From positions 1 through 24,797 of the IMG/VR virus record IMGVR_UViG_3300017649_000001: a DNA stretch of 24,797 nucleotides. One strand, written 5' to 3'. The translations under genes were made by a program, and so were the position numbers. How positions within the stretch are numbered: the first letter of the stretch is position 1; the number at the start of each line of letters is the position of its first letter. This DNA is from a virus. Its lineage: Duplodnaviria; Heunggongvirae; Uroviricota; Caudoviricetes. The notes below the pieces were generated by a model, which did no database searches, had not been told where the DNA came from, and worked only from the letters and a program-made list of their open reading frames with translations. This document shows, piece after piece, positions 1,881 through 22,799 of the stretch.

Positions 1881-1920
1881 TTGCGTGATGCTAACTAATT
1901 AGTTATTTAGTTAGCATCAC
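1881..1920 (+). promoter_or_regulatory. Putative phoH promoter overlapping an operator and a 14-bp inverted repeat (may also terminate the tail operon)
   Basis: TTGCGT(1881)-17-TATTTA(1904). TAACTAA-ttag-TTATTTA at 1892-1909. Arms GTGATGCTAACTAA 1885-1898 and TTAGTTAGCATCAC 1907-1920. Confidence 0.6.
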
Positions 1921-1967
1921 TATTGAGTTATTGTATTTGCAGTAATTCTCTAACTCTGGATCTTCAA

Positions 1968-2729
1968 ATGACCCGTATGAATCGAGCCGCAGCCCGCCAA
2001 ATCCGTCGAGATGGCAAAAAGGGCCGCAAGTCGCATGATAAACTCATTCAGGCGGCCGATGCTCAGACCAACCCCAAGCGGCCCGTAAAACGCAGCTTTG
2101 CTCTCGCCAAGCCTCTTACGGACGCACAACGCGACTACGACAGGGCCTTCCATACGAACCAGATCATTTTCGGCACCGGTCCCGCTGGCACAGGAAAGAC
2201 CTGGTTTGCAACGATCCGCGCTGCGGAAGCTTTTGAACGCGAGGAGATTGAGAAGATCATTATCACGCGGCCTGCAGTCGAGGCCGGCGAGTCCCTAGGC
2301 TTTCTGCCAGGTGAACTGGAAGAGAAGTATGAGCCTTATTTCCGACCTGTGCGTGACGCGCTCGAGGAGAAGTTTGGCACCGGCTATCTTGAGTATTTGA
2401 TCAAGGTCGGAAAGATCGAAGCGCGCCCTCTAGGTCTGTTGCGTGGTTCGACCTTCAAAGACTGTTGGGTAATTCTGGACGAAGCACAGAACGTCACGCC
2501 GACGCAGATGCAAATGTTCCTCACGCGTATCGGTGAGAATTGCAAAATGATCATCAATGGCGATCTGAAGCAGAAGGATATTCCTGGTCTCTCAGGACTG
2601 GAAGACGCGATCCACACCTTGCGTCGCGTCGCCGGTGTGGAAGAGGTGAACTTTACCACAAAGGACATTGTACGCTCGGGCATTTGCCGAGATATCGTGA
2701 TCGCCTACGACAGCAAGAAAGCTGCGTAA
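1968..2729 (+). CDS. phoH: PhoH-family ATPase
   Basis: Motifs GPAGTGKT, ITRPAVEAGESLGFLPG, LRGSTF, LDEAQN and GDLKQKD. ATG at 1968 is preferred over the TTG at 1923 in the ORF track. Confidence 0.95.
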   Translation: MTRMNRAAARQIRRDGKKGRKSHDKLIQAADAQTNPKRPVKRSFALAKPLTDAQRDYDRAFHTNQIIFGTGPAGTGKTWFATIRAAEAFEREEIEKIIITRPAVEAGESLGFLPGELEEKYEPYFRPVRDALEEKFGTGYLEYLIKVGKIEARPLGLLRGSTFKDCWVILDEAQNVTPTQMQMFLTRIGENCKMIINGDLKQKDIPGLSGLEDAIHTLRRVAGVEEVNFTTKDIVRSGICRDIVIAYDSKKAA

Positions 2730-2808
2730 AGAGGGGCAAAATAAAAATTAAATTTCCGCTAATCCCTGAAGCGGTCTGACTATAGCGCAGTCAAACAGCA
2801 TATCAGGA

Positions 2809-3531
2809 ATGGAAATGAACAATCACGAATACATAGCGGCGGCAGAACGTTTCGAACTGCCGCCGTCTGATCGCTTCAAGGACGACTGCGTTACAAACGC
2901 TTTTGTAAAATCTCAATTCTCTGCAATGGATCTCGGGCTGTTTCGCACGAAATGGTTTGATTATAGATTTTATTCTCCACTCCAGGCCACTTTCCTCTAT
3001 ATCGCCTATTTCGAGGAAGCCTATTATGACTTTTTCAAGCGGGATGTGGATTATGTCCAGGCCGAGTTCCGTCGGCCAATAACGCGGGCCAAGATTCTCA
3101 ACGGTCTTCGTGAAAACGATTCCAAACAGCGTCGCAACTTCATGGCTTTATGGCGCGGGCGTCAGGTTGCCGACGCTCTTGGTATGCCATATCCGGTCTT
3201 CCTCGATTTTGCCTTTAATGCGCGGCTGCAGAATTGGAAACGAGATACGCTACCGAGACCTGAGCATCTTTACTCCGCACGATGTATCGATAAGGTCGAG
3301 CAAAAGTGGGAAGAGTATAAGCGCACTTACTTTCTGAAATCCGATCATCCGGCATACAAGCTGGAAAATTTCTGCGGAACTGCCGATCAGATCGCGCATC
3401 AGAATTGGCTCATCGAGCAAGCGGAACACTGCTTCAACTATCCAGCCAATCTTTATGATCTCGTTCAGGAGGGACTTCTTCCTCAAGATCGGGTCGAGGC
3501 TCATCTTGGCGTTCAACCCCTTTCGCACTGA
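2809..3531 (+). CDS. Hypothetical protein upstream of the helicase (possible replication accessory or loader)
   Basis: 240-aa ORF. AGGA spacing favours a start at 2815. No recognised motif; the function guess is positional only. Confidence 0.75.
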   Translation: MEMNNHEYIAAAERFELPPSDRFKDDCVTNAFVKSQFSAMDLGLFRTKWFDYRFYSPLQATFLYIAYFEEAYYDFFKRDVDYVQAEFRRPITRAKILNGLRENDSKQRRNFMALWRGRQVADALGMPYPVFLDFAFNARLQNWKRDTLPRPEHLYSARCIDKVEQKWEEYKRTYFLKSDHPAYKLENFCGTADQIAHQNWLIEQAEHCFNYPANLYDLVQEGLLPQDRVEAHLGVQPLSH

Positions 3532-3574
3532 CTTATAAATGAAGAAACGCATTGTGTTTGTGCGTGATAAATAA

Positions 3575-3592
3575 TAACTAATTCGTTAGTTA
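3575..3592. promoter_or_regulatory. Operator palindrome (perfect copy)
   Basis: TAACTAA-ttcg-TTAGTTA, ending 17 bp upstream of the helicase ATG. Confidence 0.75.
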
Positions 3593-3609
3593 CTATTCAG
3601 GAGTTTGCA

Positions 3610-4950
3610 ATGAGTGATCTGGCCGAGGACGAGCTGGTCGACGAAACCAAATATGATTTTGACGAGGGATTTCAGAACAGTTTGGTAGCGCACTATCTGC
3701 GGGATAATAATTTCGCACTGCGCTCCAACGAAGTAATTGACCCTAAGTATTTCACGAACGCGGCCACCGGACAGGTCGTCGGCATTTTCAAAGATTACAT
3801 CGGAACACATAAGAGCGTTCCGCCATCTTCACTGGTTCGCTCGCTCCTTGAAGACGCTATAGCGAAGAAGCGCATTAAGGCTGAGGATAAGGCCGAAGTC
3901 GTCAAGATCGTCCAGACTGCCTACAAGGCACCGCTGTCAGGTGGCACATACATTCTCGGTAAGGTTGGTGAGTTCGCCAAGAATCGCGCTCTTGAAGCCG
4001 CGATCATGAAATCTGTCGAGTATCTCGACAAGGGAGACTACAAGGCGATCGCCGATATAATGGCGAAAGCGCAACGTGTCGGCGAACTCGAAGAGACCGA
4101 CGATTACGATTATTATGCCGACGTCGAGGCGCGAACTGCGGTTCGCAAGGCAATCGCGTCCGGCACTCTCACCAGAAATGGGATCACAACCGGCTATTCC
4201 GAGCTTGATGCGCACCTCTATCATTATGGATGGGGGCGCAAGGAACTCTCCTGCATCATGGGGCCGTCAAAGTCGGGCAAATCTCTATCGCTTGGTGACT
4301 TCGCGAAGAATGCCTCACTGGCCGGTCATAATACGCTCTACGTTTCGCTCGAAGTTGCGAAAGAGATTATCGCTGATCGTATCGACGCCGCGCTCTCAGA
4401 CACGCTGATCCGCGATCTCCACATAAACGCTGACGTAGTTGAAGCCTCCATCAAGGCGGCGCAGGCGAAGGCCGCTGCGTTTAAGATGCGCGACTTCGCA
4501 TCCAATTCAATGAAGCCGTCTCGTCTGTTCCGGCTAATCGAAGATTATAAGGCCGAGGGCATCATCCTCGACCTCGTTGCGCTCGACTACGCGGACATTA
4601 TGGCTGCTGAATATCGCTCGGACAGCCTTCAGGAAAACCTGCGTTCGATTTACCTCGATCTTCGTTCTATCGCTCACGAATTTAACCTCGCGATGCTGAC
4701 TGCTACGCAGACGAACCGTGATGGCGCCAAGGAAATGACTTCGAAGGCGACGAACATCGGTGACGACTGGAATAAGACAAGAACGGTCGACATTCTGATC
4801 GGTATTAACGCTACCGAAGCTGAGAAGAAGATCGGTGAGGCGCGTCTGCATTGGGTCATGTCCCGTAACACTGCTGACGGCTTCTCCATCCGCATCAAAC
4901 AGGACAGAAGCAAGATGCAGTTTCTGACCAAGGTTCTCGGGATAATCTGA
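3610..4950 (+). CDS. dnaB: Replicative DNA helicase (DnaB/T4 gp41-like)
   Basis: Walker A GPSKSGKS, YVSLE, Walker B LDYAD, and TATQTNR; RBS AGGAG. Confidence 0.93.
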   Translation: MSDLAEDELVDETKYDFDEGFQNSLVAHYLRDNNFALRSNEVIDPKYFTNAATGQVVGIFKDYIGTHKSVPPSSLVRSLLEDAIAKKRIKAEDKAEVVKIVQTAYKAPLSGGTYILGKVGEFAKNRALEAAIMKSVEYLDKGDYKAIADIMAKAQRVGELEETDDYDYYADVEARTAVRKAIASGTLTRNGITTGYSELDAHLYHYGWGRKELSCIMGPSKSGKSLSLGDFAKNASLAGHNTLYVSLEVAKEIIADRIDAALSDTLIRDLHINADVVEASIKAAQAKAAAFKMRDFASNSMKPSRLFRLIEDYKAEGIILDLVALDYADIMAAEYRSDSLQENLRSIYLDLRSIAHEFNLAMLTATQTNRDGAKEMTSKATNIGDDWNKTRTVDILIGINATEAEKKIGEARLHWVMSRNTADGFSIRIKQDRSKMQFLTKVLGII

Positions 4951-6032
4951 TGAGTGATATTTTTCAGCGCATCCAGTCAGAGCTTGATTTCGGATACTTT
5001 CTCGATAGCGAAGGACTGGATTACAAGGAAGTTCAGGGGTCGAGCGGCGAGCAATTTCATATAAAATGCTGTCCGACATGCGGTGACTCCCGCTGGCGCA
5101 CTTATATGGGCGTCGAGTCCGGTCTAGGGAACTGCTTCAAATGCGGTGAGAAATACACCAAGATCACCTTTCTCAAAGCGCATTTTGGCTATGACAATTG
5201 GGGGGAGACTTTTCGCAAATGCGAGGAAGTTCTCCACGATCAAGGCTGGCGACCGGTTCGAAAATCGGTCGTCGTGGAGCCAAATATATCGGAAATTCGT
5301 CTGCCGATCTCGGATCCAATTCCATTCGCAAACGGAGCCAACTTTCCTTATCTTGAGGAGCGCGGCGTCACGAAGGAGCTTGCGGCCTACTTTCATCTCC
5401 GGTTCTGCAAGTTTGGCGGATGGGTGTTCAAGTCGTCTGAAGGAAAACAGCAACTCCAAAATTTCAGCGACCGCATCATTATCCCGATCTTTGACCTCGA
5501 CAGAGAGTTGAAGACATTTCAGGGGCGCGACGTTTCAGGCAACTCTGATCGAAAATATCTGTTTCCGGTTCAACTCCCTGGAACTGGCCGATATCTCTAT
5601 AACGGCCAGAATGTTGTCGCCTGCGAGCATGTTGTGATGGGCGAGGGCGCTTTTGACGTGATTGCCATCAAGGCAGCGCTCGACCTCGATCCTGCAACCA
5701 GGAACGTGGTTGCGATCGGCTCATTCGGCAAGCACCTGTCGCACGGTCACAAAACCAATGACGATCAACTCTCCCGATTGTCCACGCTAAAGGCACAAGG
5801 TTTGAAGCGCGTGACGATTATGTGGGACGGAGAACCGGCAGCATTAACCGCAGCGCTTGATGCAGCCAAGCTGATCCGGTCAGTCGGATTGATGCCGCTC
5901 ATTGCCCTTCTACCGTCAGGCAAAGATCCAAACGAAGTGCCGGCCGAGGAAGTTATCAAAGCGTTTTACGCAGCCAAAGAGTGGAATCTCTCCACAGACG
6001 TGAAATGGCGCTTGCGAAATCCATACGCGTAA
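4950..6032 (+). CDS. DNA primase (Zn finger + TOPRIM)
   Basis: CPTC...CFKC zinc finger, IIIPIFD, RYLYN, TOPRIM motifs EGAFD and WDGE, and KDPNE. TGATG overlap with the helicase. Confidence 0.92.
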   Translation: MSDIFQRIQSELDFGYFLDSEGLDYKEVQGSSGEQFHIKCCPTCGDSRWRTYMGVESGLGNCFKCGEKYTKITFLKAHFGYDNWGETFRKCEEVLHDQGWRPVRKSVVVEPNISEIRLPISDPIPFANGANFPYLEERGVTKELAAYFHLRFCKFGGWVFKSSEGKQQLQNFSDRIIIPIFDLDRELKTFQGRDVSGNSDRKYLFPVQLPGTGRYLYNGQNVVACEHVVMGEGAFDVIAIKAALDLDPATRNVVAIGSFGKHLSHGHKTNDDQLSRLSTLKAQGLKRVTIMWDGEPAALTAALDAAKLIRSVGLMPLIALLPSGKDPNEVPAEEVIKAFYAAKEWNLSTDVKWRLRNPYA

Positions 6033-6041
6033 AATAGATAC

Positions 6042-6059
6042 TAACTAACTGATTAATTA
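6042..6059. promoter_or_regulatory. Operator palindrome
   Basis: TAACTAA-ctga-TTAATTA (1 mismatch), upstream of the three-orphan cluster. Confidence 0.7.
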
Positions 6060-6097
6060 TTTACCGCGTGAAACCCTCGTTTCGCTCGCGTATAAAA

Positions 6098-6760
6098 ATG
6101 TCAGATAAAGCAACAGCAATAACAGACGGCAGATCAATGACAGCTAATCGCTACACGGTTAAGGTGACGCGAACACCTTTGACGAATGGCAAACGCACGT
6201 TTGTCTCTTTTGTCGCTGTGGGTTGGAATGGCGCAGCGCTTTTCTTTTCGAGCGCGCCCAATGAAGACGCCTACGGATTAGAAAAGGACGACAAGGAGTA
6301 TCACGCCTGGCTTCCCATCCAGAAGAATGAATCCGGCGTCCAGGCGATCATCGCTGGCAGCAATCTCAATTACAATCGCCGTTCATGGGAATCGAGCCAA
6401 ATGTTCGATGACGATGTGGTGAATTTCTTCAAGGAAATTAAGAAGGTTGGCTACACCGATATCAAGCGCGATTTGGTTCAGCACATCGTCGGCCCAGGGC
6501 TAGACGAGGAGCGGTATTTGGAGCTGCGCGTAAACGCGGCACTGTCTGATGCTGGTAAGCACTTTAGGGCACAAATCAGAGATATCGACTCGCGAAATCC
6601 AGTTTTCGTCAATTTTAAAAGCAGCCTTGATCGTGATCATGCCGCTTATAAGAAGATAGCTGAACGTCGGCGCGCGGAAGCTGAGGAAATTCAAGCCCTG
6701 GAAGCGCTAATCACTAACCAGGTGTTTGCACAGACACACGAAGGTTTTGGAGCGTTCTGA
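6098..6760 (+). CDS. Hypothetical protein, C-terminal FGAF motif (#1)
   Basis: Open frame 6068-6760; ATG at 6098 is preferred over GTG at 6068. Ends ...QTHEGFGAF*. Confidence 0.75.
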   Translation: MSDKATAITDGRSMTANRYTVKVTRTPLTNGKRTFVSFVAVGWNGAALFFSSAPNEDAYGLEKDDKEYHAWLPIQKNESGVQAIIAGSNLNYNRRSWESSQMFDDDVVNFFKEIKKVGYTDIKRDLVQHIVGPGLDEERYLELRVNAALSDAGKHFRAQIRDIDSRNPVFVNFKSSLDRDHAAYKKIAERRRAEAEEIQALEALITNQVFAQTHEGFGAF

Positions 6761-7566
6761 TGAATGAGGTTGATGATTTCGGCCGCAGCGATATCAAGAT
6801 TTTCGCAAATCTTGTCGCCAGCGAACTTACCGACGCGGCGACGCGTAAGAACCCCTTCCTCGATCCTCGCACTGACGGATATCTAAGTAAATCGGTCGCG
6901 GAGTATTTGGGTAGGCTGTACGATAATGGTCTGGCGAGTGCAGATGGCTGGCTGTTTGATACGATGGAGAACTTCGCCGCCATCTACAGATGCGGCTCGA
7001 ACGCAGTTCTGTTTCAAGTTTATATTGCGCCAGATAATGGCGTTTTCGCCTGTATGACGCGATGGATCAGATACGCCGGCCAGTCTTTGAATTTCTTTAA
7101 TTTGGAGAGTCGGGCTGTCTTTCTCAATCCTGAAAATCTCTTAAACCAGGCGATTATATGCGAGGAAAATGTTTCCGCGCCGATGTTCTTTAGTGGCCGC
7201 GTTGGACGGCTCCTGCCTTACATGGATGTGACCTACGAGCGGGATGCATATAAATACTGGCGTCCTCGCAAAAGTGAAAAGGATAAGCGGGCTGGCGGGT
7301 TTGAACCATTCCATCAAATGCTCAGCGGACTTAATCTGGCGGCCGCACTGACCTCTGAGGCTGGTCGAAAGTTCGCCTCATATTACGCCAGCGACAAAGG
7401 TTCAGATACCGGCTCGGGCGATATGTGGGAGGTCGCTCACGCCATTCGCGATTTTCGCTCCAGAGCGGATACGAACGACGATCTTGGCGTCAGTGTCGAA
7501 GGTTATATCAAGCCAAAAATCGATCAGAAGTTCTACGCGGAGCTTCCCGGCTTTGGCGCTTTCTAA
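6760..7566 (+). CDS. Hypothetical protein, C-terminal FGAF motif (#2)
   Basis: 268 aa, TGATG overlap with the previous gene. Ends ...YAELPGFGAF*. Confidence 0.8.
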   Translation: MNEVDDFGRSDIKIFANLVASELTDAATRKNPFLDPRTDGYLSKSVAEYLGRLYDNGLASADGWLFDTMENFAAIYRCGSNAVLFQVYIAPDNGVFACMTRWIRYAGQSLNFFNLESRAVFLNPENLLNQAIICEENVSAPMFFSGRVGRLLPYMDVTYERDAYKYWRPRKSEKDKRAGGFEPFHQMLSGLNLAAALTSEAGRKFASYYASDKGSDTGSGDMWEVAHAIRDFRSRADTNDDLGVSVEGYIKPKIDQKFYAELPGFGAF

Positions 7567-7577
7567 GCGAGGATAGA

Positions 7578-8432
7578 ATGAACAACTGCATCAAAAGCTC
7601 CGTCAATGTTAAGAAGATTCAGTTCTCTCTTTACGGTAGGCCGTTCGGAGCTTTCCATTATGAGCGCTTCGATGACTATTCGTTTCGGGAAGCATTCGTC
7701 CAAGATTTCATAGCGAATCCGGAGGCGGCGCTTGGCTATCGTCACTTTGTCAAAACCATCAAAGACACAAAAGAGAAAACCTCTTTTGGTGCTCTGCAAT
7801 TGATCTATATCCTACCAACGCTACCTGACCCACTCAAAAATCAGTGCGTTCAAACCTTCAATGCGATAATTCCCACCGTTTTCGATGAAGAAATAAACGG
7901 TTGGCGTGTCGGTTATCATTATGAAGAAACTGAGAAGGGCGGCTCGGGATCTGGCATAGCTATTGATAATGTTACATGGGCGAACATGATGGGTCCTGAT
8001 ATCAATCATTATCCCGTTGACGAAGCTTTTCGCCGATATCGTAATCGACTTCGCCGTTATGTGAACAATATTTTTATGGGTTACGCACCTTCGCTTATTG
8101 AGCGAAACTGGTTACCAACCCAATCACGGGCAACATTCTTCTACGGCCACGATGAAAAGAACTACAAAGGTCTTTTCAACAGCAATGCAAGTCTGGCTCT
8201 CGACGGTCTTAATTTATTGCTCGCACTCCAGCATCATGGCGATTTTGGAAAGACAGCGCTCGGAAAAGTGCTCAGCAAGAGCGCTTATAATTTTCGTCCT
8301 ACGGTACATGCTTATCGGAATCGTCGTTCATCGTATGAAATAAAACAAGGCATGATCAACGTACTCGACGATGAAGAAATCCAAAAAGTAGTAGAATACT
8401 ACGCCGACAATCCTCTTTTTGGTGCCTTCTAA
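7578..8432 (+). CDS. Hypothetical protein, C-terminal FGAF motif (#3)
   Basis: ATG at 7578 follows a GAGGA RBS; the 7425 start would overlap the previous gene by 142 nt. Ends ...YADNPLFGAF*. Confidence 0.8.
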   Translation: MNNCIKSSVNVKKIQFSLYGRPFGAFHYERFDDYSFREAFVQDFIANPEAALGYRHFVKTIKDTKEKTSFGALQLIYILPTLPDPLKNQCVQTFNAIIPTVFDEEINGWRVGYHYEETEKGGSGSGIAIDNVTWANMMGPDINHYPVDEAFRRYRNRLRRYVNNIFMGYAPSLIERNWLPTQSRATFFYGHDEKNYKGLFNSNASLALDGLNLLLALQHHGDFGKTALGKVLSKSAYNFRPTVHAYRNRRSSYEIKQGMINVLDDEEIQKVVEYYADNPLFGAF

Positions 8433-8434
8433 GG

Positions 8435-8452
8435 TAACTAACTAATTAGTTT
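8435..8452. promoter_or_regulatory. Operator palindrome
   Basis: TAACTAA-ctaa-TTAGTTT (1 mismatch), upstream of the Cys-rich ORF/ligase unit. Confidence 0.7.
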
Positions 8453-8526
8453 CGCCGATACTAACCCAAATCAACTTGCGTTATGTTTGAGAAAATCGCG
8501 CAAGTTGAACAGAGAGATATAAAACA

Positions 8527-10601: not shown

Positions 10602-10602
10602 T

Positions 10603-11685: not shown

Positions 11686-11735
11686 ATCTCCAAACCTTTA
11701 TTTAGGCCAAGCGATCCCGTTCGCCCAGAAAGGCG

Positions 11736-11764
11736 TTGACAGGTGATTCGGAATTGGAGTAGGA
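11736..11764 (+). promoter_or_regulatory. Antisense (ctRNA) promoter in the repC leader
   Basis: TTGACAGGTGATTCG resembles the conserved TTGACAGTGATTCG ctRNA promoter of repABC plasmids as I recall it. It is oriented opposite to repC and contains a GANTC site at 11745. Confidence 0.65.
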
Positions 11765-11767
11765 AGA

Positions 11768-12079: not shown

Positions 12080-12374
12080 GGTTACTGCTCCGTTAATGCG
12101 ATTTCTAGCTACTCAGATTCTTTCCGATTCTACAAGCGCCCCAAAATGGCCCTCCTCTGGAATCTTTCATTCCCTCTGAATAAGGGGGTTAAATAATTGT
12201 TGAATAATTATTTTCGTAAAAAGTCGTGGTTTTAAGCGATTCCCTCTTGATTTCTCACTATTTAATTACTTATCAATGTCGCAACGACAAAAGGCGATCA
12301 TCGACGAAGTTACAAACTGAGTTCCGTTAGGATGATGTAATGCGGAATTAAAGATACAGGCAAGGAGATCGATA

Positions 12375-12818
12375 ATGGGCGAACCGACTAAGTTTAATGA
12401 ATTTTTACAAAATGCACTTGAGCGTCCGCATGGCCTGACGAACAAGGAAATCGCCGACAAGGTTGGTATCCCTAATGCCAACATGATCTCCATGTTCAAG
12501 AGAAACCCCGATTACAAGACGCCACTTCAATATATTGCCGGTCTCTCCAAGGTGCTTGGCTTTGACTTCCGCTACGGAATGCGCCTGGCATTGCAGCAAT
12601 ATTATACCGATGATGTTATCAACGCCCTCGAGCGCGCATTCGTCGAAATGACGGACGACGAGCAGGCGGTCCTGAACGAATATCGCGAAGCTAAAAAGTC
12701 CGGAAAAGCTTTTGCTGTTGATGGCGAAACGCTTTCCGAGGAAGAAGCGGAGGTAATCCGCAACATGCGGAAGCTTCGCGAACTGGGAGTTCCGGTGAAC
12801 TTCAGCAAAGGCGCCTGA
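12375..12818 (+). CDS. XRE/Cro-C1-like HTH regulator (candidate master repressor)
   Basis: LTNKEIADKVGIPNANMISMFKR helix-turn-helix, RBS AAGGAG, own downstream terminator, divergent from RHH-repC. Confidence 0.75.
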   Translation: MGEPTKFNEFLQNALERPHGLTNKEIADKVGIPNANMISMFKRNPDYKTPLQYIAGLSKVLGFDFRYGMRLALQQYYTDDVINALERAFVEMTDDEQAVLNEYREAKKSGKAFAVDGETLSEEEAEVIRNMRKLRELGVPVNFSKGA

Positions 12819-12846
12819 TAGCGCTACCCAAAACCGACGTTTGAGT

Positions 12847-12870
12847 AAAACAAGGCTGCGGCCTTGTTTT
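12847..12870. terminator. Intrinsic terminator (potentially bidirectional)
   Basis: AAAACAAGGC-tgcg-GCCTTGTTTT perfect hairpin. Confidence 0.8.
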
Positions 12871-12886
12871 ATATTGCTCCTCAGTC

Positions 12887-12904
12887 TCACTAACCGGTTA
12901 TTTA
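12887..12904. promoter_or_regulatory. Operator palindrome
   Basis: TCACTAA-ccgg-TTATTTA; its arms are the reverse complement of those at 15352. Confidence 0.65.
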
Positions 12905-12917
12905 GCTAGGTGACAAC

Positions 12918-13112
12918 ATGTCTAATAAAGCAGTTCTTCAGGAAATTCGTATCAATGAAGCCGAAGTGTTCGAGCAGATCGACAAGATTTCGAATCCGAC
13001 GGTGATCGATATGAATGGACTGACTATTTATAGCGGAAATCACGAAGAATATGGCAATTGCCGTTTGATCGTTACAGCGTTCGCCGAAGCGGTTTTGTAT
13101 TTCGCCAAGTGA
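12918..13112 (+). CDS. Small hypothetical protein (64 aa)
   Basis: RBS AGGTG, operator directly upstream, fills the gap before the vWA gene. Confidence 0.65.
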   Translation: MSNKAVLQEIRINEAEVFEQIDKISNPTVIDMNGLTIYSGNHEEYGNCRLIVTAFAEAVLYFAK

Positions 13113-13150
13113 TCCCCAGATCGATTTCGAATAACTTGTGAGCAGTTGAA

Positions 13151-13168
13151 TAACTCACAAGTTATTTC
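13151..13168. promoter_or_regulatory. Operator palindrome (degenerate)
   Basis: TAACTCA-caag-TTATTTC, overlapping a 13-bp inverted repeat at 13130-13166. Confidence 0.5.
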
Positions 13169-13204
13169 TTTTATGAACAGCAGCAGCAACGTCCGAGGTC
13201 AGGA

Positions 13205-15280: not shown

Positions 15281-15302
15281 GCCCAAAAAATGCGCAAAGG
15301 AC

Positions 15303-15369
15303 TAACTAATACGTTAGTTGCCAGTTGAAGCCCTTTGCGCAATCGCGTAAATAAATAATCAGTTAGTGA
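15303..15369. promoter_or_regulatory. Two operator palindromes upstream of the AAA+ gene
   Basis: TAACTAA-tacg-TTAGTTG at 15303-15320 and TAAATAA-tcag-TTAGTGA at 15352-15369, plus an extra half-site TAACTAA at 15374. Confidence 0.75.
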
Positions 15370-15404
15370 GAACTAACTAAATCAGCAGCAGCAACGAGGA
15401 TCAG

Positions 15405-16685
15405 ATGACCGCGCTTCAGAACGAAACAGCCACGCCTACCGCCAACGACAAAATCAAATGCCTTGTCGACGGACAGATGGTTCACTCCATTCAGAACCAT
15501 ATCGAGAAGAACCTTCCTGAATGGACCATCCAGCGCTATCAGGAAGCATATCCGGACACGCCGTTGTTCTCGCCTTATGGTGAAATGATCAAACAGCGTG
15601 CTCTCAAGAATGCCGAGGACCAGCGCAAGCAGCGTGAGGAGAAGGAGCGCCAGGTGGCGGATGCTGCACCAGCGCCCGTTGCCGGAACGTCGAATAACGT
15701 TGTGGTGGGTAACTTCGGTGGCAAGCAGGCCGAGCTGATCTCAAAAGTTGGCGCGATGCACGAACTTTTCGATCTTGGCGCCGTACCAGCAGCCATGGGT
15801 TCGAAGGGGCAGCCAATTGCGGTGCACTATTATGAAGGTCACACGGACCTCAATTCGCTCTATCTGCCGGCGACCGACGCTGCATATGTCTTCAACATCG
15901 ACCTCCTGAAGAAAGTCATTCTGGCGCTTCAGTTGAATTTCCCGATGCTGCTCTGGGGTAAACACGGCACTGGTAAGACGACCATCGTCGCCCAGGCATC
16001 TGCTCGAACGGGCCGTCCTGTTATGCGTGTCCAGCACACGATGAACATGCAGGAGTCTGACGTTATCGGTCAGTGGACTGTGAAGAACAGCGAAACGGTG
16101 TTCGAGCTTGGACCGCTTCCGACCGCCATGCTGAACGGTTGGGTTTACATCGCCGACGAATATGACTTCGCAATGCCTGCCGTGACAGCGCTCTACCAGC
16201 CGGTTCTCGAAGGTGAAGCTTTGATCATCAAGGACGCGCCAGCGCATCTTCGCAAGATCGTTCCGCACGAGAACTTCCGCTTCTTCGCTACCGGCAACAC
16301 GAACGGCACCGGCGACGAAACTGGTCTCTATCAAGGCACGACCATGCAGAACGCCGCCAACTACTCGCGCTTCAAGATCACCGAAGAGGTCGAGTACATG
16401 GACGCGAAGATCGAGGAAGCCATCATTTCTGCCAAGACTGGCGTCGACAAGACGGTTTCGCGCAATCTCGTGAAGTTCGCCAATCAGGTTCGTTCATCGT
16501 TCACTGAAGGCAAAATTTCTTCCACGATCTCTCCACGTGAGCTGATCTCGGCTGCTCAGATCGGCTTCGCGTTCGGTGGAAAGTGGGCTGTCGGTTTGCA
16601 GCTCGCGTTTTCCAATCGCTTGTCGTCGGTCGACAAATCGGCCTGCGAGCAGTTCATGAACCGAGTGTTTAAGGACGGCGAATAA
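15405..16685 (+). CDS. CobS-like MoxR AAA+ ATPase
   Basis: Walker A GKHGTGKT, Walker B IADEYD, FRFFATGNT, and C-terminal ISPRELI. Confidence 0.9.
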   Translation: MTALQNETATPTANDKIKCLVDGQMVHSIQNHIEKNLPEWTIQRYQEAYPDTPLFSPYGEMIKQRALKNAEDQRKQREEKERQVADAAPAPVAGTSNNVVVGNFGGKQAELISKVGAMHELFDLGAVPAAMGSKGQPIAVHYYEGHTDLNSLYLPATDAAYVFNIDLLKKVILALQLNFPMLLWGKHGTGKTTIVAQASARTGRPVMRVQHTMNMQESDVIGQWTVKNSETVFELGPLPTAMLNGWVYIADEYDFAMPAVTALYQPVLEGEALIIKDAPAHLRKIVPHENFRFFATGNTNGTGDETGLYQGTTMQNAANYSRFKITEEVEYMDAKIEEAIISAKTGVDKTVSRNLVKFANQVRSSFTEGKISSTISPRELISAAQIGFAFGGKWAVGLQLAFSNRLSSVDKSACEQFMNRVFKDGE

Positions 16686-16687
16686 TC

Positions 16688-17314
16688 GTGACGAACTATC
16701 GTGACCCGAAGAACAGCGAAGCGCAGATAAAGCGCTTCGCCTGGAAGGTGTTGCGACGTTTTCGTGCCGCAGGCGACCACTCCCACGAGATCGATGATGT
16801 TGTGCAGGAGCTATGGATCGCCTGGCACAAGGCTGTCCAAGCCTTCAACCCCGAAATGGGCGTGCCATTTGGTGCTTATCTGATGCGCGGAATGAAGTTC
16901 CACATCAACAAATACGCCGATGATCACGTCACCAAGCGTCACGATGAAGTTGTGGCGCTGTCGATGGATATGACGTTCGACGAAGATAAAGCCTTCGCGA
17001 ACATCATTCCGGACACCGCAGAGCTTCAGGATGAGGTCGTTATCAAGCGCGGTCTATTTGAGCGCGTGGTGGCTGAACTTTCGCCAGACGCCAAGACGTT
17101 CGTCCGGATCATGACAGATGATTCCGAAGAGCTTCGACACGAAGTGAGGGCGATCGAGGAGCGGAACAACTACGCAAGCTCTCAAAGGGTGCGCAGCCTG
17201 CTTCCACTCGGCCTCTCTGAAACTGCCGTCTTCGAGTTGATGGGCGCAACATACCGTCAGCGTGAACGGATTTTGGCAGAGATTGAGAATGTGAGCCAAA
17301 GGTACAGCAAATGA
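16688..17314 (+). CDS. Sigma70-family (region 2)-like transcription factor
   Basis: EIDDVVQELWIAWHKAVQAFNPEMGVPFGAYLMRGMKFHI fits sigma region 2; LSMD follows. GTG start. Confidence 0.75.
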   Translation: MTNYRDPKNSEAQIKRFAWKVLRRFRAAGDHSHEIDDVVQELWIAWHKAVQAFNPEMGVPFGAYLMRGMKFHINKYADDHVTKRHDEVVALSMDMTFDEDKAFANIIPDTAELQDEVVIKRGLFERVVAELSPDAKTFVRIMTDDSEELRHEVRAIEERNNYASSQRVRSLLPLGLSETAVFELMGATYRQRERILAEIENVSQRYSK

Positions 17315-17835
17315 CCAATACTCCGCAGTTTGCCCCAGGCTGTTTTGGTTCAGCGCTTGCTTTCAAGAGCGCTGACCAGATTTGTCGCCAGTGTGTGTTT
17401 CGCGCTCAGTGCGAGCCTGAACACTACAAAAACCTTCAGGCGCTTCGCGACAAATACGGCATCAAGTCGAAGGATCGTCCGAAGGTCCTGAACGATGATG
17501 ACGAGAAGTACCCGGGGCTGACTGCGAAAGTGGTCGAGGTGATCGAACGTCTCAAGCGTATGGATATCGACGTGAAGGGAATATTCAAAAGCGGTCAGAA
17601 CCCGTTCGTCGGCCGGAATATGTTTCCTTTCGAGTTCATCTGTCATGCAGCGTTGAAGCAACCGGATCGCAAGCTTGAAATGCGCCAAGTCGCGATCTTC
17701 TTTGCGCAAAAGCTGAATTGGGCCCCGAATACGGCAGCCGCTCAGGCTCGCATTGTCTGCAAAGCGCTCGAATATTTCAATGTGGTTCGCTGTGAAGGCG
17801 ACCAGGTTATCTCCACTCTCGCTGATAACGGATGA
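17311..17835 (+). CDS. Hypothetical protein with N-terminal Cys cluster and possible winged helix
   Basis: PGCFGS...CRQC...C at the N-terminus; ATGA overlap with the sigma-like gene. Confidence 0.75.
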   Translation: MTNTPQFAPGCFGSALAFKSADQICRQCVFRAQCEPEHYKNLQALRDKYGIKSKDRPKVLNDDDEKYPGLTAKVVEVIERLKRMDIDVKGIFKSGQNPFVGRNMFPFEFICHAALKQPDRKLEMRQVAIFFAQKLNWAPNTAAAQARIVCKALEYFNVVRCEGDQVISTLADNG

Positions 17836-17838
17836 TTT

Positions 17839-20800
17839 ATGAATACCGCCCTCGCCTGCCGTTCTGATTTCTCCCTTGGTGAGTCCATTTTGACCACCGA
17901 TTATATCGTGCGTGACGCGAAAGCTGCCGGGCAGACTGCCGTGGCGCTTACTGACACAATGAGCGTTACCGCAATGACGAACTTTTTCGGTGCCGCGAAA
18001 AAGGATGGGCTGAAGGCGATCATTGGAACGCGTCTACGTTTAACAGACAATCCAACCTGGCGGCCTGGCAAGGACCAGAAGAAAAAGGATATGCCGCGTA
18101 CTTACTGCGCGATCCTTTATGCGCGTACTGAGGCGGGTCTAAAGGTGATCTATCGCCTTCTGTCACTCGCTAATTCAGAAGCACGGTTCTACTACGAGTC
18201 CAAGCTTGGCTTCGACGATCTGTATAAGGAGCTGGACGCCGCGGGTAATGACGATCTGGCGATCGTGTATGGCGATACACATAGCATTCTGGAACACCCT
18301 GAGTTCGATAAGATCGCTTCGCGGTTAAAGACGACTGGTGTTTCTGAGATTTTTGCGCCGTTCGTTCCGGTAAACACCCCGTATTTCGCTCGATTGTCAG
18401 AGTTGGCTGCTAATGCGTGCCGTGACGGCTATGCGAAGCCGCTTGTTATTCGACCAGCGCTCTATGAGCGCGATGCTGCGGATTATAAAGAAATCATCAC
18501 GGCTGCGATCGGCAATCAGAAGATTACTGATCCTTGGTTTCGCTCTGCCTACAATCGCGACTTTCATATCATGCAAAAGCCGGAACTGACGGCCGAGCTG
18601 GTGAAAACTGGCAAGATGTTGCAGACGCTTGGTAAGGATGAAGCGTTGAAGCAGATGCGCGCAGGCATCGCCAATACTGAAACCTTTCCCGATCTGTTCA
18701 CGTATGAATGGAGCAAATCCGGCGTCACTCTGCCAAAGCTAGTTCCCAACGAGTTCGCAAAAGTAGTCGAGGAATGCAAGCTTGGCTGGACACGTCGGTT
18801 CATGTCACCGGTTTTTGGTCATATGCCGGATATGACTGAACTGAGCACGGTTTACATGCCGCGTTTGAAATACGAGCTGGAAGTTCTCCAAAAGCTCGAC
18901 TTCTCTGGCTACTTTCTGCTCGTCCAGGATATCGTTCGACATGCAAAGGATTCAGGTATTCTTGTAGGTCCAGGTCGAGGCTCCGTCGGCGGCTCCCTTG
19001 TCGCTTATCTTATGGGCATCACTGAATGCGATCCAATCAGGTTCGGCCTTCTGTTCGAACGCTTCATCAATCCGGAGCGTATCGACTTGCCTGACGCCGA
19101 TCTCGACTTCATGTCCGAGCGCCGTCACGAGATTTTCGAATATCTGTATGCCAAATATGGCGAGGAATACACTGCCGGTGTCTCAAACTACGGCACACTC
19201 GGCGGCGCATCTGCAATTCGCGACGTATCGAAGGCAATGGGTATCCCGGAGCGCGAGTATTCGATCTCCAAGATGGTGCCGAAAGAGCACGGTCAGCCAG
19301 TCGCTCTTCAGAAGGCTCGTGAGAGTGTGCCCGAGATTGACGACTACGCTACCAAATACGAGGCAGTGTGGTCAGTTATCGAGCGCGCCGAAGACAACAT
19401 GCGATCTTATGGTCAGCACGCAGCCGGTGTCGTTGTAGCCGGTGAGCCGCTTGTAAATCGTGCGGTTCTGGAGCGTCGCGCAAACGGTCAGGTTGTCTGT
19501 TGGGACAAGCGCATCGTTGAAGATCAGGGATTGGTAAAGGTTGATATTCTTGGCCTGAAAACACTCGATCTAATCGATCTGGCGCTGACCTATATTCGCG
19601 AGCGATACACAAGCGTCCCGGATCTTCATCAAATCCCGCTTGATGATGAGAAAGTGCTCGCCAATTTTGCTGAAGGTAACTCTGTTGCTGTGTTCCAGTT
19701 CGAAAGCCCTGGAATGAGAAAGTTGCTGCGCGAAGTCGGTGCAGGTGGCGATATCACATTTGAAGACGTCTCTGCCTGCACCGCACTTTATCGACCTGGC
19801 CCGATGGAGTCAGGTATGATGGACAGCTTCTACTTGCGCAAACAGGGTAAAGAGCCAGTTTCTTATGATCACGCCCTTATGGAAGACGTTCTGAAGGAAA
19901 CATTCGGCGTTATCACCTATCAGGAACAGGTCATGCGTATCTCTCAGGTGATCGCAGGCTATTCCGGCGCCGAAGCAGACAAACTGCGCAAGATCATGGG
20001 CAAAAAACAGCCTGACGAAATGGCAAAGCAGAAGGATAAGTTCATAGAAGGCTGCGTCAACACAATCGGCGCAACTGAGACGTGGGCTGGCTCGCTGTTT
20101 GAAAAGATCGCAGGTTTCGCGGGCTACGGTTTCAATAAAAGCCATAGTATCGAGTACACGCTGATCTCCTATCAGTCGATGTACCTCAAGACCTATTATC
20201 CTGCAGAGTTCTATGCGGCAGCCTTGTCGATCCTTGATGACGACAAACTTAACGCCATCGTTAGAGACGCCAAGCGAGCGGGTATCGACATTTCTGTGCC
20301 CGATATCAATATCTCCACCAACCGGTTCGAGATTGCGACCAGCGCTCGCCTTGTAACACCTTTCAATCGTATCAAAGGAATTTCGTCACGTACCGGCGAT
20401 GCAATATTGGCGGCGCGCGCAGCAGGTCCGTTTAAAGACAAGGCTGATTTTTTGGCGCGTGTCGAGCGACAGAAGTGCAATGTAAAGCACCAAAAGCTTC
20501 TCGATGACGTTGGTGCGTTCTCGCGCATTGAGTTAAGTCAACCCCCAGCGGACGATCCCACCCGTATTCTGTCGCAGATCGAGCTTCTGCCGGGCCTTGT
20601 TATCAGCACGGTCCCGGTCAATCGCGACCTCGATGCATCGAAGCTATCGCGTGAAATGGTTTCTGACGTGATCAACGCCTGCAGAACGGCTTATGGTCCG
20701 ACGGCACCTGTGCCAGATGGTGTTATCGTATCGCCGAGGTTCGGTAAGGACGCGCGTTTTGTTGTCGTGATGGATGCGCCAAGCAAAGATGAGGAAGATG

Positions 20801-21198
20801 CCGGCGTTATGGGTCCGTCAAATGCCGCAGAAGCGATCAAGGATGCGCTCGCTCTACACGGTATGACGATTGATGAAATGTACTGGACAGCGCTGATCAA
20901 GCGGCCCAAACAGGGCAAACAAGTCATGCCAGACGAGATCGCCAAGTATGCGCCATTTCTTGAGCGCGAGCTTGAGCAGATCGGTTCGCCCGTCATCGTC
21001 ACGCTTGGCACTGCTGCCACGCGGTATTTCCTTCCTGACTTTAAAGGTAAGGCGTCAGACGCTGCCGGTCAGATCCATTACGACAAGACCCGCGACGTGA
21101 ATATCGTCGTCGGTTTTAATCCGAACGAGATCCATTTCGATCCCGACAAACTCGAAAATCTCGTTGAGGTTTTCGCGTCCGTTGTCGATCTGCTCTAG
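17839..21198 (+). CDS. dnaE: DNA polymerase III alpha subunit (family C) with C-terminal UDG-like domain
   Basis: PHP-like N-terminus (RSDFSLGES, LTDT), GPGRGSVGGSL, catalytic PDADLDF, KVDILGLKTL, FQFES, ALYRPGPM, GYGFNKSH, PDINIS. The last ~185 aa follow a family-4 UDG pattern. Confidence 0.95.
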   Translation: MNTALACRSDFSLGESILTTDYIVRDAKAAGQTAVALTDTMSVTAMTNFFGAAKKDGLKAIIGTRLRLTDNPTWRPGKDQKKKDMPRTYCAILYARTEAGLKVIYRLLSLANSEARFYYESKLGFDDLYKELDAAGNDDLAIVYGDTHSILEHPEFDKIASRLKTTGVSEIFAPFVPVNTPYFARLSELAANACRDGYAKPLVIRPALYERDAADYKEIITAAIGNQKITDPWFRSAYNRDFHIMQKPELTAELVKTGKMLQTLGKDEALKQMRAGIANTETFPDLFTYEWSKSGVTLPKLVPNEFAKVVEECKLGWTRRFMSPVFGHMPDMTELSTVYMPRLKYELEVLQKLDFSGYFLLVQDIVRHAKDSGILVGPGRGSVGGSLVAYLMGITECDPIRFGLLFERFINPERIDLPDADLDFMSERRHEIFEYLYAKYGEEYTAGVSNYGTLGGASAIRDVSKAMGIPEREYSISKMVPKEHGQPVALQKARESVPEIDDYATKYEAVWSVIERAEDNMRSYGQHAAGVVVAGEPLVNRAVLERRANGQVVCWDKRIVEDQGLVKVDILGLKTLDLIDLALTYIRERYTSVPDLHQIPLDDEKVLANFAEGNSVAVFQFESPGMRKLLREVGAGGDITFEDVSACTALYRPGPMESGMMDSFYLRKQGKEPVSYDHALMEDVLKETFGVITYQEQVMRISQVIAGYSGAEADKLRKIMGKKQPDEMAKQKDKFIEGCVNTIGATETWAGSLFEKIAGFAGYGFNKSHSIEYTLISYQSMYLKTYYPAEFYAAALSILDDDKLNAIVRDAKRAGIDISVPDINISTNRFEIATSARLVTPFNRIKGISSRTGDAILAARAAGPFKDKADFLARVERQKCNVKHQKLLDDVGAFSRIELSQPPADDPTRILSQIELLPGLVISTVPVNRDLDASKLSREMVSDVINACRTAYGPTAPVPDGVIVSPRFGKDARFVVVMDAPSKDEEDAGVMGPSNAAEAIKDALALHGMTIDEMYWTALIKRPKQGKQVMPDEIAKYAPFLERELEQIGSPVIVTLGTAATRYFLPDFKGKASDAAGQIHYDKTRDVNIVVGFNPNEIHFDPDKLENLVEVFASVVDLL

Positions 21199-21207
21199 GA
21201 GTTTCAG

Positions 21208-21891
21208 TTGCGCATATTTGGTGGAGACTGCAATCCGGGTAGTCCAAGAATTATAGATATTGAGAACCGGATCGAAACCATCATCGCCGGCTCCAAAATT
21301 CTTCGTCAGTCGCGTGAATTTGTTCACCCTGCGTTGGCTATGGAACTCAGGCTTATGCTTGAGAGCTTGGAAAACGGCTTGGCGTCTTATAGATATCTCG
21401 CCAATCTCTTGCTCAGATACTCGCTCTATAATCTCGCGGACACGACGCATAGAGTTTTGGCGACGAAAATCGCCACCTTGTCGCACATAATCACCAGTCT
21501 TTTGGGTACAGGTAAGGTCTACGCTCAACCTGTTCGTGAGATCAGAGCTTCATTTAAGGAAGTTCACGCTCTAATGGAGCTGACTGCTTACCTTAATGAA
21601 GCTCTCAACGTGAAGAAAACCGACGGGGACACTCATAAAATCAATGGCGCTGAAATAACGCTGCGCGGTTTCAAGAGCACGATTGCCGAAAATGCAGACA
21701 GTACATTTTCGGCAATCGTATCTACGGATGAATTTGTTCTGTCCGAGGGGCTTTTTACAGTAGCTCCGATATTATCAACGTTCGAACATTTCGACTTGGA
21801 ATCGGGTTATTTCCCGTTCCCCACTCCAGCCGAAGCTATAATTAAAATCGAAATGACACATGAAACACTCCCTGGTTTCGGTGCGTTCTGA
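21208..21891 (+). CDS. Hypothetical protein, C-terminal FGAF motif (#4)
   Basis: TTG start after AGGAG, which overlaps the dnaE stop. Ends ...HETLPGFGAF*. Confidence 0.7.
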   Translation: MRIFGGDCNPGSPRIIDIENRIETIIAGSKILRQSREFVHPALAMELRLMLESLENGLASYRYLANLLLRYSLYNLADTTHRVLATKIATLSHIITSLLGTGKVYAQPVREIRASFKEVHALMELTAYLNEALNVKKTDGDTHKINGAEITLRGFKSTIAENADSTFSAIVSTDEFVLSEGLFTVAPILSTFEHFDLESGYFPFPTPAEAIIKIEMTHETLPGFGAF

Positions 21892-21900
21892 AGGTGAAAA

Positions 21901-22416
21901 ATGGCTGAAGAAGAAACCAAACACGTTGTCAACGTGATGGATTACACCGACCCAAAAGTTTTGGGCACGGATCTGTCATATTCGACGACCGATCTTTCTA
22001 CCGCGATGCAGAAGCAATCGCCGCTGTTCGCACATTATGGCGTTCAGGCAGCAAAAGCGTCCGCTCAGGTAGACGCCTTGAAGCTGGTTCTCGAAACGAC
22101 CGAGGCCAATGTTTACAAGGTTCTTCGTTCGTCCTTGCTTGCCACTGGCGACAAGCCCACCGAGGCGCAGCTTGAAAAGCTCGTTTCGGCCCATGAGAAG
22201 GTAATCGCTATCAAAAAGGCGATCATTAAGGCAAAGCAGATCGAATCCAATGCGAAGACAGCGGTCGAAGCCTTCCGGCATCGTAAGGATATGCTTATTC
22301 AACATGGCCTCATTTCGCGTGAGGAAATGCGTGGCGACATTCGTATCGCCGAGAAAAATCAACGGGATGATATTGTCGCTCAATATCATAACCGTCGTCA
22401 GGCCGAAGCCTCTTAA
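21901..22416 (+). CDS. UvsY-like helical recombination/ssDNA-binding mediator
   Basis: All-helical protein with ...KPTEAQLEKLV...AVEAFRHRKDMLIQ, resembling UvsY-type proteins; lies near the SSB gene. Confidence 0.55.
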   Translation: MAEEETKHVVNVMDYTDPKVLGTDLSYSTTDLSTAMQKQSPLFAHYGVQAAKASAQVDALKLVLETTEANVYKVLRSSLLATGDKPTEAQLEKLVSAHEKVIAIKKAIIKAKQIESNAKTAVEAFRHRKDMLIQHGLISREEMRGDIRIAEKNQRDDIVAQYHNRRQAEAS

Positions 22417-22423
22417 AATCTCG

Positions 22424-22470
22424 TTGCAACCCGTCTCTGTTGTCTGTAAAGATAACTAATCAATTAGTGA
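22424..22470 (+). promoter_or_regulatory. Putative promoter followed by an operator palindrome
   Basis: TTGCAA(22424)-17-TAAAGA(22447), then TAACTAA-tcaa-TTAGTGA at 22453-22470. Confidence 0.7.
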
Positions 22471-22480
22471 GATTAACCAA

Positions 22481-22720
22481 ATGTTGAACAAACTTCTCAT
22501 TCTCTTGAAGCTACGCAAGCCTAGCCGCACGATCGCTTCAATTACCAGTTCGGTCGCGAAAATCCGACAGGAGCTGGCCGAGCACGCCGTCGAGCAGCAG
22601 CAGAAATCTGAACAGCTCTCCGAGGAAGCGCATAAGCTTCTAGCCGACTCCGGCGCTGCCGATGTTGAATCCAAGAACGCTCTCGCGCTCTCAGCAAAAT
22701 ACGCCGAGCTGGTAGTTTAA
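22481..22720 (+). CDS. Small coiled-coil hypothetical protein
   Basis: 79-aa ORF with heptad-like helix, directly downstream of an operator. Confidence 0.65.
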   Translation: MLNKLLILLKLRKPSRTIASITSSVAKIRQELAEHAVEQQQKSEQLSEEAHKLLADSGAADVESKNALALSAKYAELVV

Positions 22721-22765
22721 CTGCCAGCTTAGCCCCTCTCAGCCGACGCTATATCGAAGCAGTTA

Positions 22766-22799
22766 AGTCACTAGATAACTACCTAGTTAAGTAGTGACT
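22766..22799. promoter_or_regulatory. Degenerate operator / nested palindromes upstream of the SSB gene
   Basis: AGTCACTA...TAGTGACT arms enclose TAACTA-cc-TAGTTA (22776-22789). Confidence 0.5.

Follow-up and report, generated by a model that had tools for sequence, protein, structure and literature searches.

The first 24.8 kb of the viral record IMGVR_UViG_3300017649_000001 (24,797 nucleotides (nt), hereafter the window, of 112,228 bp in total) carries many copies of a short palindrome, TAACTAA-N4-TTAGTTA, together with the gene of a small XRE-type protein that is our candidate for binding them. The record derives from soil and sediment metagenomes and bears a 123-bp terminal repeat. Encoded in the window are the end of a tail fibre, a PhoH-like ATPase, a DnaB-like helicase, a primase and an ATP-dependent ligase; the initiator RepC, on the minus strand; and CobT- and CobS-like proteins, a protein with a Sigma70_r2 domain, DNA polymerase III alpha, a gp32-like single-stranded DNA-binding protein (SSB) and an exonuclease. 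This gene order and content match those of Rhizobium phage RHEph10 and of resident plasmids of Pararhizobium, Shinella and Sinorhizobium, the last being pLM21S1, a plasmid-like prophage (PMC4447125); a more distant match is the SSU5 group, which includes the Escherichia coli phage-plasmid Cyrano. Judged by these comparisons the element is an RHEph10/SSU5-like phage-plasmid, and both the RepC replicon that it carries and the residence of its relatives as plasmids are traits of a plasmid-prophage lifestyle.

The palindrome, its variants and its placement

Searching for TAACTAANNNNTTAGTTA (TAACTAA-N4-TTAGTTA) with at most two mismatches returned 11 overlapping matches in the window, against 0.02 expected from shuffled sequence, and at most three mismatches gave 16 against 0.21. 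Across the full record there are 53 matches per strand and none to the reversed control pattern. After merging, these make up 50 palindrome loci, of which 44 are mostly intergenic in a genome with 9.8% intergenic DNA. An annotation made earlier from the letters of the window (the sequence-only reading) had proposed a dispersed operator of this form, and the counts bear it out: the motif is real, is spread over the whole element and is not equally frequent in coding DNA. As that reading also said, every copy in the window is intergenic and none stands ahead of the ribbon–helix–helix (RHH) gene and repC.

Its details needed more revision. Eight of the ten copies that it listed hold up (1892, 3575, which is perfect, 6042, 8435, 12887, 15303, 15348/15352 and 22453). 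The copy placed at 13151 has three mismatches and lies inside another inverted repeat, with a 12-bp stem, upstream of cobT, and the copy called degenerate at 22776 is actually a perfect copy of a second register, TAACTA-NN-TAGTTA. Nor is the spacing fixed, because half-sites are paired genome-wide at gaps of 0 (n = 42), 4 (n = 53) and 8 (n = 22), with other gaps nearly absent; the element is therefore assembled from 4-bp units, (TAAC)(TAAN)..(NTTA)(GTTA). The commonest form, TAACTAA-N4-TTAGTTA, accounts for 53 of the 117 half-site pairs and has half-site centres 11 bp apart; in the gap-0 and gap-8 registers the centres are 7 and 15 bp apart. The 4-nt centre, described as free, is constrained, with T at position 9 in 25 of 35 sites and G or A at position 11 in 31 of 35. 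The upstream (left) half is better preserved than the downstream (right) half (10 mismatches versus 24), which is only a mild bias, and the recurring variants TCACTAA and TAAATAA are found in either half.

About a third of the genes of the 112-kb element are preceded by a palindrome. Replication genes are among them, as are packaging, head, tail and lysis genes at 78–110 kb. The proposal of a dispersed repressor regulon thus survives in that one palindromic site type is found before many units, with no full copy ahead of repC, RHH or the XRE gene; a regulon of early 'lytic promoters' alone would be too narrow for some 50 loci that extend to head, tail and lysis genes. Many sites fill gaps of 18–40 bp. 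Here and in Cyrano alike, one separates the capsid gene from its terminator, an arrangement that is unlike a promoter-linked operator. At genome positions 88091–88140 and Cyrano 5448–5500, the major capsid gene is followed by a copy of the palindrome and then immediately by a G+C-rich terminator hairpin. The individual features of the window are collected in Table 1.

Table 1. Palindromes, promoter-like boxes and regulatory genes in the window (rows marked 'genome' lie further along the record; ORF, open reading frame; HTH, helix–turn–helix; aa, amino acids)
Position	Strand	Feature	Context
1887–1918		32-nt extended palindrome around the 1892 copy	12-bp arms GATGCTAACTAA ... TTAGTTAGCATC
1892–1913		Palindrome locus TAACTAATTAGTTATTTAGTTA, gap-0, -4 and -8 registers	Upstream of PhoH-like gene (1923–2729)
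3515–3538		Two-box promoter-like motif	
3575–3592		Perfect palindrome copy TAACTAATTCGTTAGTTA	18 nt ahead of DnaB-like helicase start; position kept in relative L036
6042–6063		Palindrome locus	Upstream of orphan ORF at 6068/6098; then conserved promoter-like box GAAACCC-N13-GTATAA
6072–6095		Two-box promoter-like motif	
8435–8452		Palindrome TAACTAACTAATTAGTTT	Begins 3 nt past stop of 7425–8432 ORF; 75 nt ahead of 8527 start
12255–12272		Weak copy TCACTATTTAATTACTTA, 3 mismatches	Some 100 nt ahead of XRE gene, within spacer of possible CTTGAT-N17-CTTATC promoter
12375–12818	+	XRE/Cro-C1-type HTH protein, 147 aa, candidate dimeric repressor	Helix 3, PNANMISMFK
12850–12873	+	Intrinsic-terminator-like hairpin and T run	Closes XRE unit; conserved in L036
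12887–12908		Palindrome TCACTAACCGGTTATTTA, 2 mismatches	14 nt ahead of 64-aa ORF (12918–13112), which is in Cro position
15303–15320		First of tandem palindromes	Upstream of cobS–sigma–dnaE unit
15329–15352		Two-box promoter-like motif	
15348–15381		Second palindrome (15348–15369) and additional half-site (15374–15380)	Overlaps -10-like end of promoter-like box 15329–15352
16688–17314		Sigma-70 region 2 protein, 208 aa	Conserved after cobS in Shinella, RHEph10, Pararhizobium and L036
22453–22470		Palindrome TAACTAATCAATTAGTGA	Abuts GCAACCC-N14-TAAAGA (or TTGCAA-N18-AAAGAT); 11 nt ahead of 22481 start
22731–22754		Two-box promoter-like motif	
22776–22789		Perfect 14-bp register TAACTA-CC-TAGTTA	21 nt downstream of AGCCCC-N12-CTATAT; upstream of gp32-like SSB gene (22844)
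26850, 31858, 35664, 38212, 54283 (genome)		Two-box promoter-like motif	

Conservation of the sites and neighbouring promoter-like motifs

A metagenomic relative, L036 (44% GC; XRE protein 45% identical), in which the flanks of the sites have diverged, carries TAA[C/A]TAA-N4-TTA[G/T/C]TTA sites at the same junctions, namely before dnaB, the 64-aa ORF, cobS (two in tandem), a 79-aa ORF and the SSB gene. The form of the site varies among the other relatives. The Shinella plasmid has TAAGTAA-N4-TTACTTA, with 48 half-sites against 0.6 expected; RHEph10 and Pararhizobium have the consistently asymmetric TCAGTAA-ATAT-TGATTGA; Cyrano, SSU5 and a Klebsiella plasmid have TAAGTA-NN-TACTTA and TA[A/G]GTAA-N4 forms; and an Acinetobacter plasmid has AGTAAG-NN-CTTACT. 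The TAAGTA-type palindromes of Cyrano number roughly 30. On this comparative evidence, the site system is common to a large phage-plasmid family. Ahead of the XRE gene itself, Shinella has a two-mismatch site (54030) and Cyrano has GGTAAGTGCTTACC, both better than the copy at 12255 here; these sites hint at autoregulation, with 12255 as a candidate low-affinity site. Our literature search found no description of the motif or of a repressor for SSU5- or RHEph10-type elements, and an exact-pattern scan of viral contigs returned mostly lone chance copies and recovered none of the close relatives. The CtrA box (TTAA-N7-TTAA), considered after PMC9437464, was rejected: the motif has no TTAA repeat, and the sites are present in E. 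coli relatives, which have no CtrA. Likeness to the consensus of integration host factor is a resemblance only.

Promoter-like signals near the palindromes are of two kinds. Sigma70-like boxes at the sites, which the sequence-only reading had reported, proved weak: a standard sigma70 consensus scan places no promoter at any palindrome, and our own sigma70-type scoring recovers TTGCAA-N18-AAAGAT abutting the 22453 copy. In that scoring, 8 of 35 sites have a best match whose -10 box ends exactly at palindrome position 1 (shuffled flanks, 2.5 ± 1.5; 8 reached in 1 of 300 shuffles), and 5 of 35 have one ending at position 16 (1.5 ± 1.2; 4 of 300), a modest positional signal. The palindrome as a sigma70 promoter was rejected on these two results, and the palindrome itself is probably not the promoter. 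The other signal is a strand-specific two-box motif, A[A/G]CCC(C)-N12-14-[C/T]TATA[A/T], with 16 forward and 1 reverse copies in this genome; its counterpart in the Shinella plasmid, G[C/T]AACCC-N13-14-GCTATA[A/G], occurs 10 times forward and never in reverse. The motif precedes palindromes at distances of -5 to 36 nt, L036 retains it, and in the cobS upstream region a box of this kind is flanked by two palindromes. These features would fit a distinct promoter class, possibly one for the phage's own sigma-like protein, whose counterpart in an Acinetobacter phage-plasmid bears a sigma-factor annotation.

The placement of the palindromes relative to these boxes suggests that a site overlaps the -10/+1 region, sits in the promoter spacer or falls in the first transcribed bases, and a position so varied and yet close to the core promoter would suit a repressor better than an activator. 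Some sites can hardly be parts of promoters, namely those that fill the 18–40-bp gaps and the site before the capsid terminator. For these, a roadblock role like that of the stoperators of phage L5 is plausible by analogy.

An XRE protein as candidate binder

The + strand XRE ORF has a ribosome-binding site, a terminator and homologues, and the antisense ORF 12405–12890, a product of crude ORF calling, was accordingly rejected as spurious. Because the terminator closes the XRE unit, the next unit begins at or after the palindrome at 12887. A word-based search for homologues of the protein gave one near copy, and we therefore used an exhaustive HMMER search. The family that it delineates consists of Cro/C1-type HTH proteins of 130–150 aa; 43 of 70 aligned homologues match HTH_3, the family profile matches 8bny, an 'immunity repressor' (E = 3.9e-6), C.BclI and the 434 repressor in the PDB, and in PHROGs the protein matches only a generic regulator family.

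A homodimer model of the protein reached an interface score (ipSAE) of 0.59, compared with 0.00 for the best control, with runs agreeing in at least 84% of contacts and a predicted local distance difference test of at least 78; among proteins of solved structure, 20 of 30 pairs and 1 of 23 single chains reach the mark applied to ipSAE. The modelled interface comprises residues 51–132 and leaves the N-terminal HTH free. As a prediction, the model supports pairing of the XRE protein as a homodimer.

The place of the XRE gene beside the small ORF and cobT is kept in RHEph10, Pararhizobium, Shinella, Acinetobacter, Klebsiella and Cyrano, and about 995 plasmids in the collection searched, roughly 100–115 kb in size, carry an XRE homologue; their hosts are Klebsiella, Escherichia, Acinetobacter, Enterobacter, Yersinia and Salmonella. 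A Cereibacter plasmid with a homologue was set aside as an ordinary plasmid that is uninformative here. The protein is homologous, at 22% identity (E = 2e-6) and in a syntenic position, to CYRAN_45 of Cyrano, annotated as a 'putative repressor', and CYRAN_45 is the only Cyrano protein expressed in the lysogen or annotated as a regulator for which the rhizobial group has a homologue. RNA sequencing of E. coli LF82 lysogenic for Cyrano gave CYRAN_45 a value of 96 against a median of 9.8 (S1 Table of PMC9928086). When we combined these values with our own palindrome scan, 22 of 23 palindrome-led Cyrano genes were at background in the lysogen, and only 1 of the 22 genes reading at least 30 is palindrome-led (one-sided Fisher p = 0.047).

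Proposed regulon, rival explanations and known systems

We propose, with a probability of roughly 55%, that the palindromes are operators of one symmetric dimeric regulator, most likely the XRE protein, and that together they form a repressor regulon. The sequence-only reading had already pointed to one dimeric repressor and to this protein. The first idea fits the independently varying half-sites and a homodimer model that passes its controls; the second fits the Cro/C1-type HTH and the syntenic homology to the lysogen-expressed putative repressor of Cyrano, and is at odds with SSU5, which keeps sites without an XRE gene. Beyond the sites themselves, we infer the identity of the binder as the XRE protein, a repressive effect of its binding and a division of that effect between occlusion and roadblock. 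In the plasmid-prophage state, expression of the XRE protein would come from a unit of its own that is free of any full operator and carries, at most, the weak autoregulatory site at 12255. Each HTH of a dimer would read one TAA[C/A]TAA half-site, and bound dimers would sit on or just downstream of the core promoter at about 35–45 units for replication, recombination, packaging, head, tail and lysis. Initiation would be blocked where the dimer overlaps the -35/-10/+1 region, and elongation would be blocked, as by a roadblock, where it lies within tens of bases of the transcript start or in a short gap of a long operon. The repC, RHH, partition and maintenance genes, having no full site, would remain on.

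Several observations weigh against this proposal. The XRE protein of this element (P0001) itself falls under every Pfam threshold. In its favour, helix-3 type follows half-site type, with NAN or SPN in seven elements that have TAA[C/G]TAA sites and QSN in six that have TCAGTAA/TCAATCA sites; these elements represent few independent lineages, however, and any co-inherited gene would show the same. The protein here and that of L029 share the same helix, NANMISM, yet position 4 of the half-site differs (C versus G). The gap-0 and gap-8 registers are not expected of one rigid HTH dimer. In the Cyrano lysogen, the palindrome-led gene CYRAN_34 reads about 4.5 times background, and the silence of the others is equally expected of an activator site or of a lytic-phase promoter element. 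The empty result of the standard promoter scan also counts here, promoter assignments being consensus matches. SSU5 (L038), isolated as a plaque-forming phage, retains perfect palindromes at the same junctions without the XRE gene: the gene is missing at the syntenic place, tblastn found no homologue, and, unlike Cyrano and the resident plasmids, the interval from the tRNA gene to cobT (42597–42760) holds no XRE repressor, small ORF or integrase. Phage D29 is a repressor-less relative of L5 that retains its sites, and SSU5 may, by analogy, be a parallel case, a repressor-less derivative left by a recent deletion. Alternatively, its sites could persist through a second reader protein.

If another conserved protein reads the operators, the best candidate is one of two ParB-like proteins encoded next to the terminase genes (78460–79885 here; CYRAN_119/120 in Cyrano), acting as a multi-site binder in the manner of KorB or Noc, or else activating or organising transcription or packaging in the lytic phase. 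ParB-family proteins such as KorB and Noc bind many dispersed palindromes of 13–16 bp, the five genomes compared all conserve the ParB-like pair, and its gene is always led by a palindrome (78424 here, 105108 in Cyrano and 9083 in Shinella); a reader of this kind would also account for the sites kept by SSU5. We nevertheless regard it as unlikely. In the Cyrano lysogen the two genes are at zero or background (5.0 and 9.5), and their products therefore cannot hold the prophage silent, though they could use the sites in lytic growth; an activator would itself have to be made, and sites that range from -5 to +36 relative to the promoter-like boxes and overlap -10/+1 are unlike activator geometry. 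A promoter role for the palindrome in lytic growth, as an element read by RNA polymerase with the sigma-like protein or as a site for some other positive factor, is in our view quite unlikely. Some 50 copies before genes of every class come close to the number of T4 middle or late promoters, the Sigma70_r2 protein is encoded in the window and conserved in the RHEph10 group as well as annotated in Acinetobacter phage-plasmids, and silence in the lysogen is compatible with such a role. Against this, no homologue of the sigma-like protein was detected in Cyrano by tblastn and the SSU5 annotation shows none between cobS and dnaE, and both have the palindromes, which is why we rejected that protein as the site reader. 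The separate two-box motif, at variable distance, is the better promoter candidate; sigma factors do not read symmetric sites with independent half-site variants; several sites are too tight for a leader; and one site lies ahead of a terminator.

Whether the palindrome acts instead in RNA, as a hairpin in 5′ untranslated regions or between cistrons for processing, stability or translational control, can be judged from how its halves vary. Sites lie 0–50 nt upstream of ribosome-binding sites, some are downstream of promoter-like boxes and so would be transcribed, and the copy at 1887–1918 is the sole one in the window with a stable predicted RNA fold (-15.5 kcal/mol). With that exception, predicted folding is mostly 0 to -6 kcal/mol and no better than that of shuffles. 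The full 7-bp stem is kept at only 11 of 43 sites, G–T pairs make up just 3 of 46 broken pairs, and compensated double changes number 2 against the 2.16 expected for independent halves. Moreover, the RHEph10 halves consistently differ at two positions, and the symmetry is maintained on both strands, minus-strand genes included. This variation pattern is that of a two-fold symmetric protein site and not of a conserved hairpin; because the halves vary independently and the stems are mostly broken, we favour a protein dimer over an RNA stem and set the hairpin aside, on pair counts and folding, as very improbable.

Returning to the XRE repressor regulon, its nearest precedents are found in several systems. 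The sequence-only reading had likened it to C1 of phage P1, also a plasmid prophage, in which one repressor acts at many scattered operators before separate units and leaves the replicon and partition genes on. The dispersal agrees, with 50 loci over 112 kb. P1 operators, however, are asymmetric 17-mers, C1 is not known to have a Cro/C1-type HTH, and P1 late genes are under separate control by Lpa; here there are about 50 palindromic sites, also ahead of head, tail and lysis genes, and the candidate has an XRE-type HTH, so that C1 is set apart by description. In the KorB/KorA system of the IncP plasmid RK2, a repeated palindromic operator likewise co-ordinates many operons at variable promoter distances. 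KorB is a ParB-family protein with 12 sites; the ParB-like genes considered here are silent in the lysogen of the studied relative Cyrano.

The predicted protein itself resembles lambdoid CI/Cro, 434 and P22 c2 repressors. It belongs to the same fold family (by its homologues and profile), is modelled as a dimer and is paired with a two-fold symmetric operator whose half-site centres lie about 11 bp, or one helical turn, apart, and a small ORF that follows closely after an operator takes the Cro position. In lambdoid phages the operators number about six, at two loci, and antitermination cascades control the rest. Here, by contrast, the operator occurs at about 50 loci, has extra 4-bp registers and goes with a 147-aa protein that lacks an S24 cleavage domain.

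In distribution, the sites recall the stoperators bound by gp71 in L5 and other Cluster A phages, where one short site recurs dozens of times in the narrow intergenic gaps of early and late operons (PMC9283540, PMC6550527) and its copies are proposed to silence the whole prophage, partly by stopping elongation (PMC9283540, PMC6550527). The sites here likewise lie in gaps of 18–40 bp and precede head, tail and lysis genes at 84–109 kb. Stoperators are asymmetric 13-mers, orientation-biased and bound by a monomer (PMC9283540), whereas the present site is symmetric with a mild half bias and the model of its candidate reader is dimeric; hosts and phage lineages are also unrelated. With their short gaps and the copy before the capsid terminator, the sites resemble the L5 stoperators at least as much as the P1 C1 operators. 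By analogy, then, the nearest counterparts would be the P1 C1 regulon in lifestyle and logic and the L5 stoperators in distribution, with a protein of the lambdoid CI/434 kind.

A wider generalization is more speculative, and we consider it doubtful though possible. One small XRE-type dimer might silence the whole SSU5/RHEph10/AB supergroup, including pHCM2-, pMT1- and Klebsiella-type plasmids, through about 50 sites that serve both as promoter operators and as elongation roadblocks, an independent, symmetric and dimeric counterpart of the stoperators in which the 4-bp registers allow alternative frames or a second protein. Alternative registers or shared sites would explain why the repressor-less SSU5 retains its sites. 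If true, this would be a second, independently evolved way of silencing a prophage through dozens of intergenic sites. SSU5- and RHEph10-like phage-plasmids are common, and a defined operator with a named candidate repressor addresses their choice between plasmid maintenance and lysis; it opens the questions of what silences these elements, what sets their immunity groups and why isolates such as SSU5 behave as lytic. A further outcome is the distinction between the operator and a second, promoter-like motif, which may be that of the phage-encoded sigma-like factor.

Some further sequence features were observed nearby or in other genomes. The SSU5 gap between the tRNA gene and cobT carries a palindrome of its own, CTGTACGAACAG-N9-CTGTTCGTACAG. 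In Cyrano, a LexA-box-like CTGT-N8-ACAG lies at 41039–41062 (L026 21040–21063), flanked by CYRAN_43, which is very highly expressed, and by the integrase gene; ciprofloxacin is reported to induce Cyrano (PMC9928086). Two viral contigs, L085 (IMGVR_UViG_3300040801_000836) and L099 (IMGVR_UViG_3300001351_000822), have no XRE homologue in common with this genome and hardly any other protein, and each has six copies, 0.1 to 2.5 kb apart, of a palindrome nearly the same as the one described here, in the forms (T/C)AACTAAC-NN-GTTAGTT(A/G) and TATAACTAAA-N4-TTAGTTATA. The inverted repeat just upstream of cobT in the window, at 13131–13142 and 13154–13165, is separate from the palindrome and has the 12-bp stem ATAACTTGTGAG / CTCACAAGTTAT. 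L036 has a hairpin of other sequence, ATGTGACATGA / TCATGTCACAT, in the same place, and it is therefore structure, not sequence, that is conserved there.

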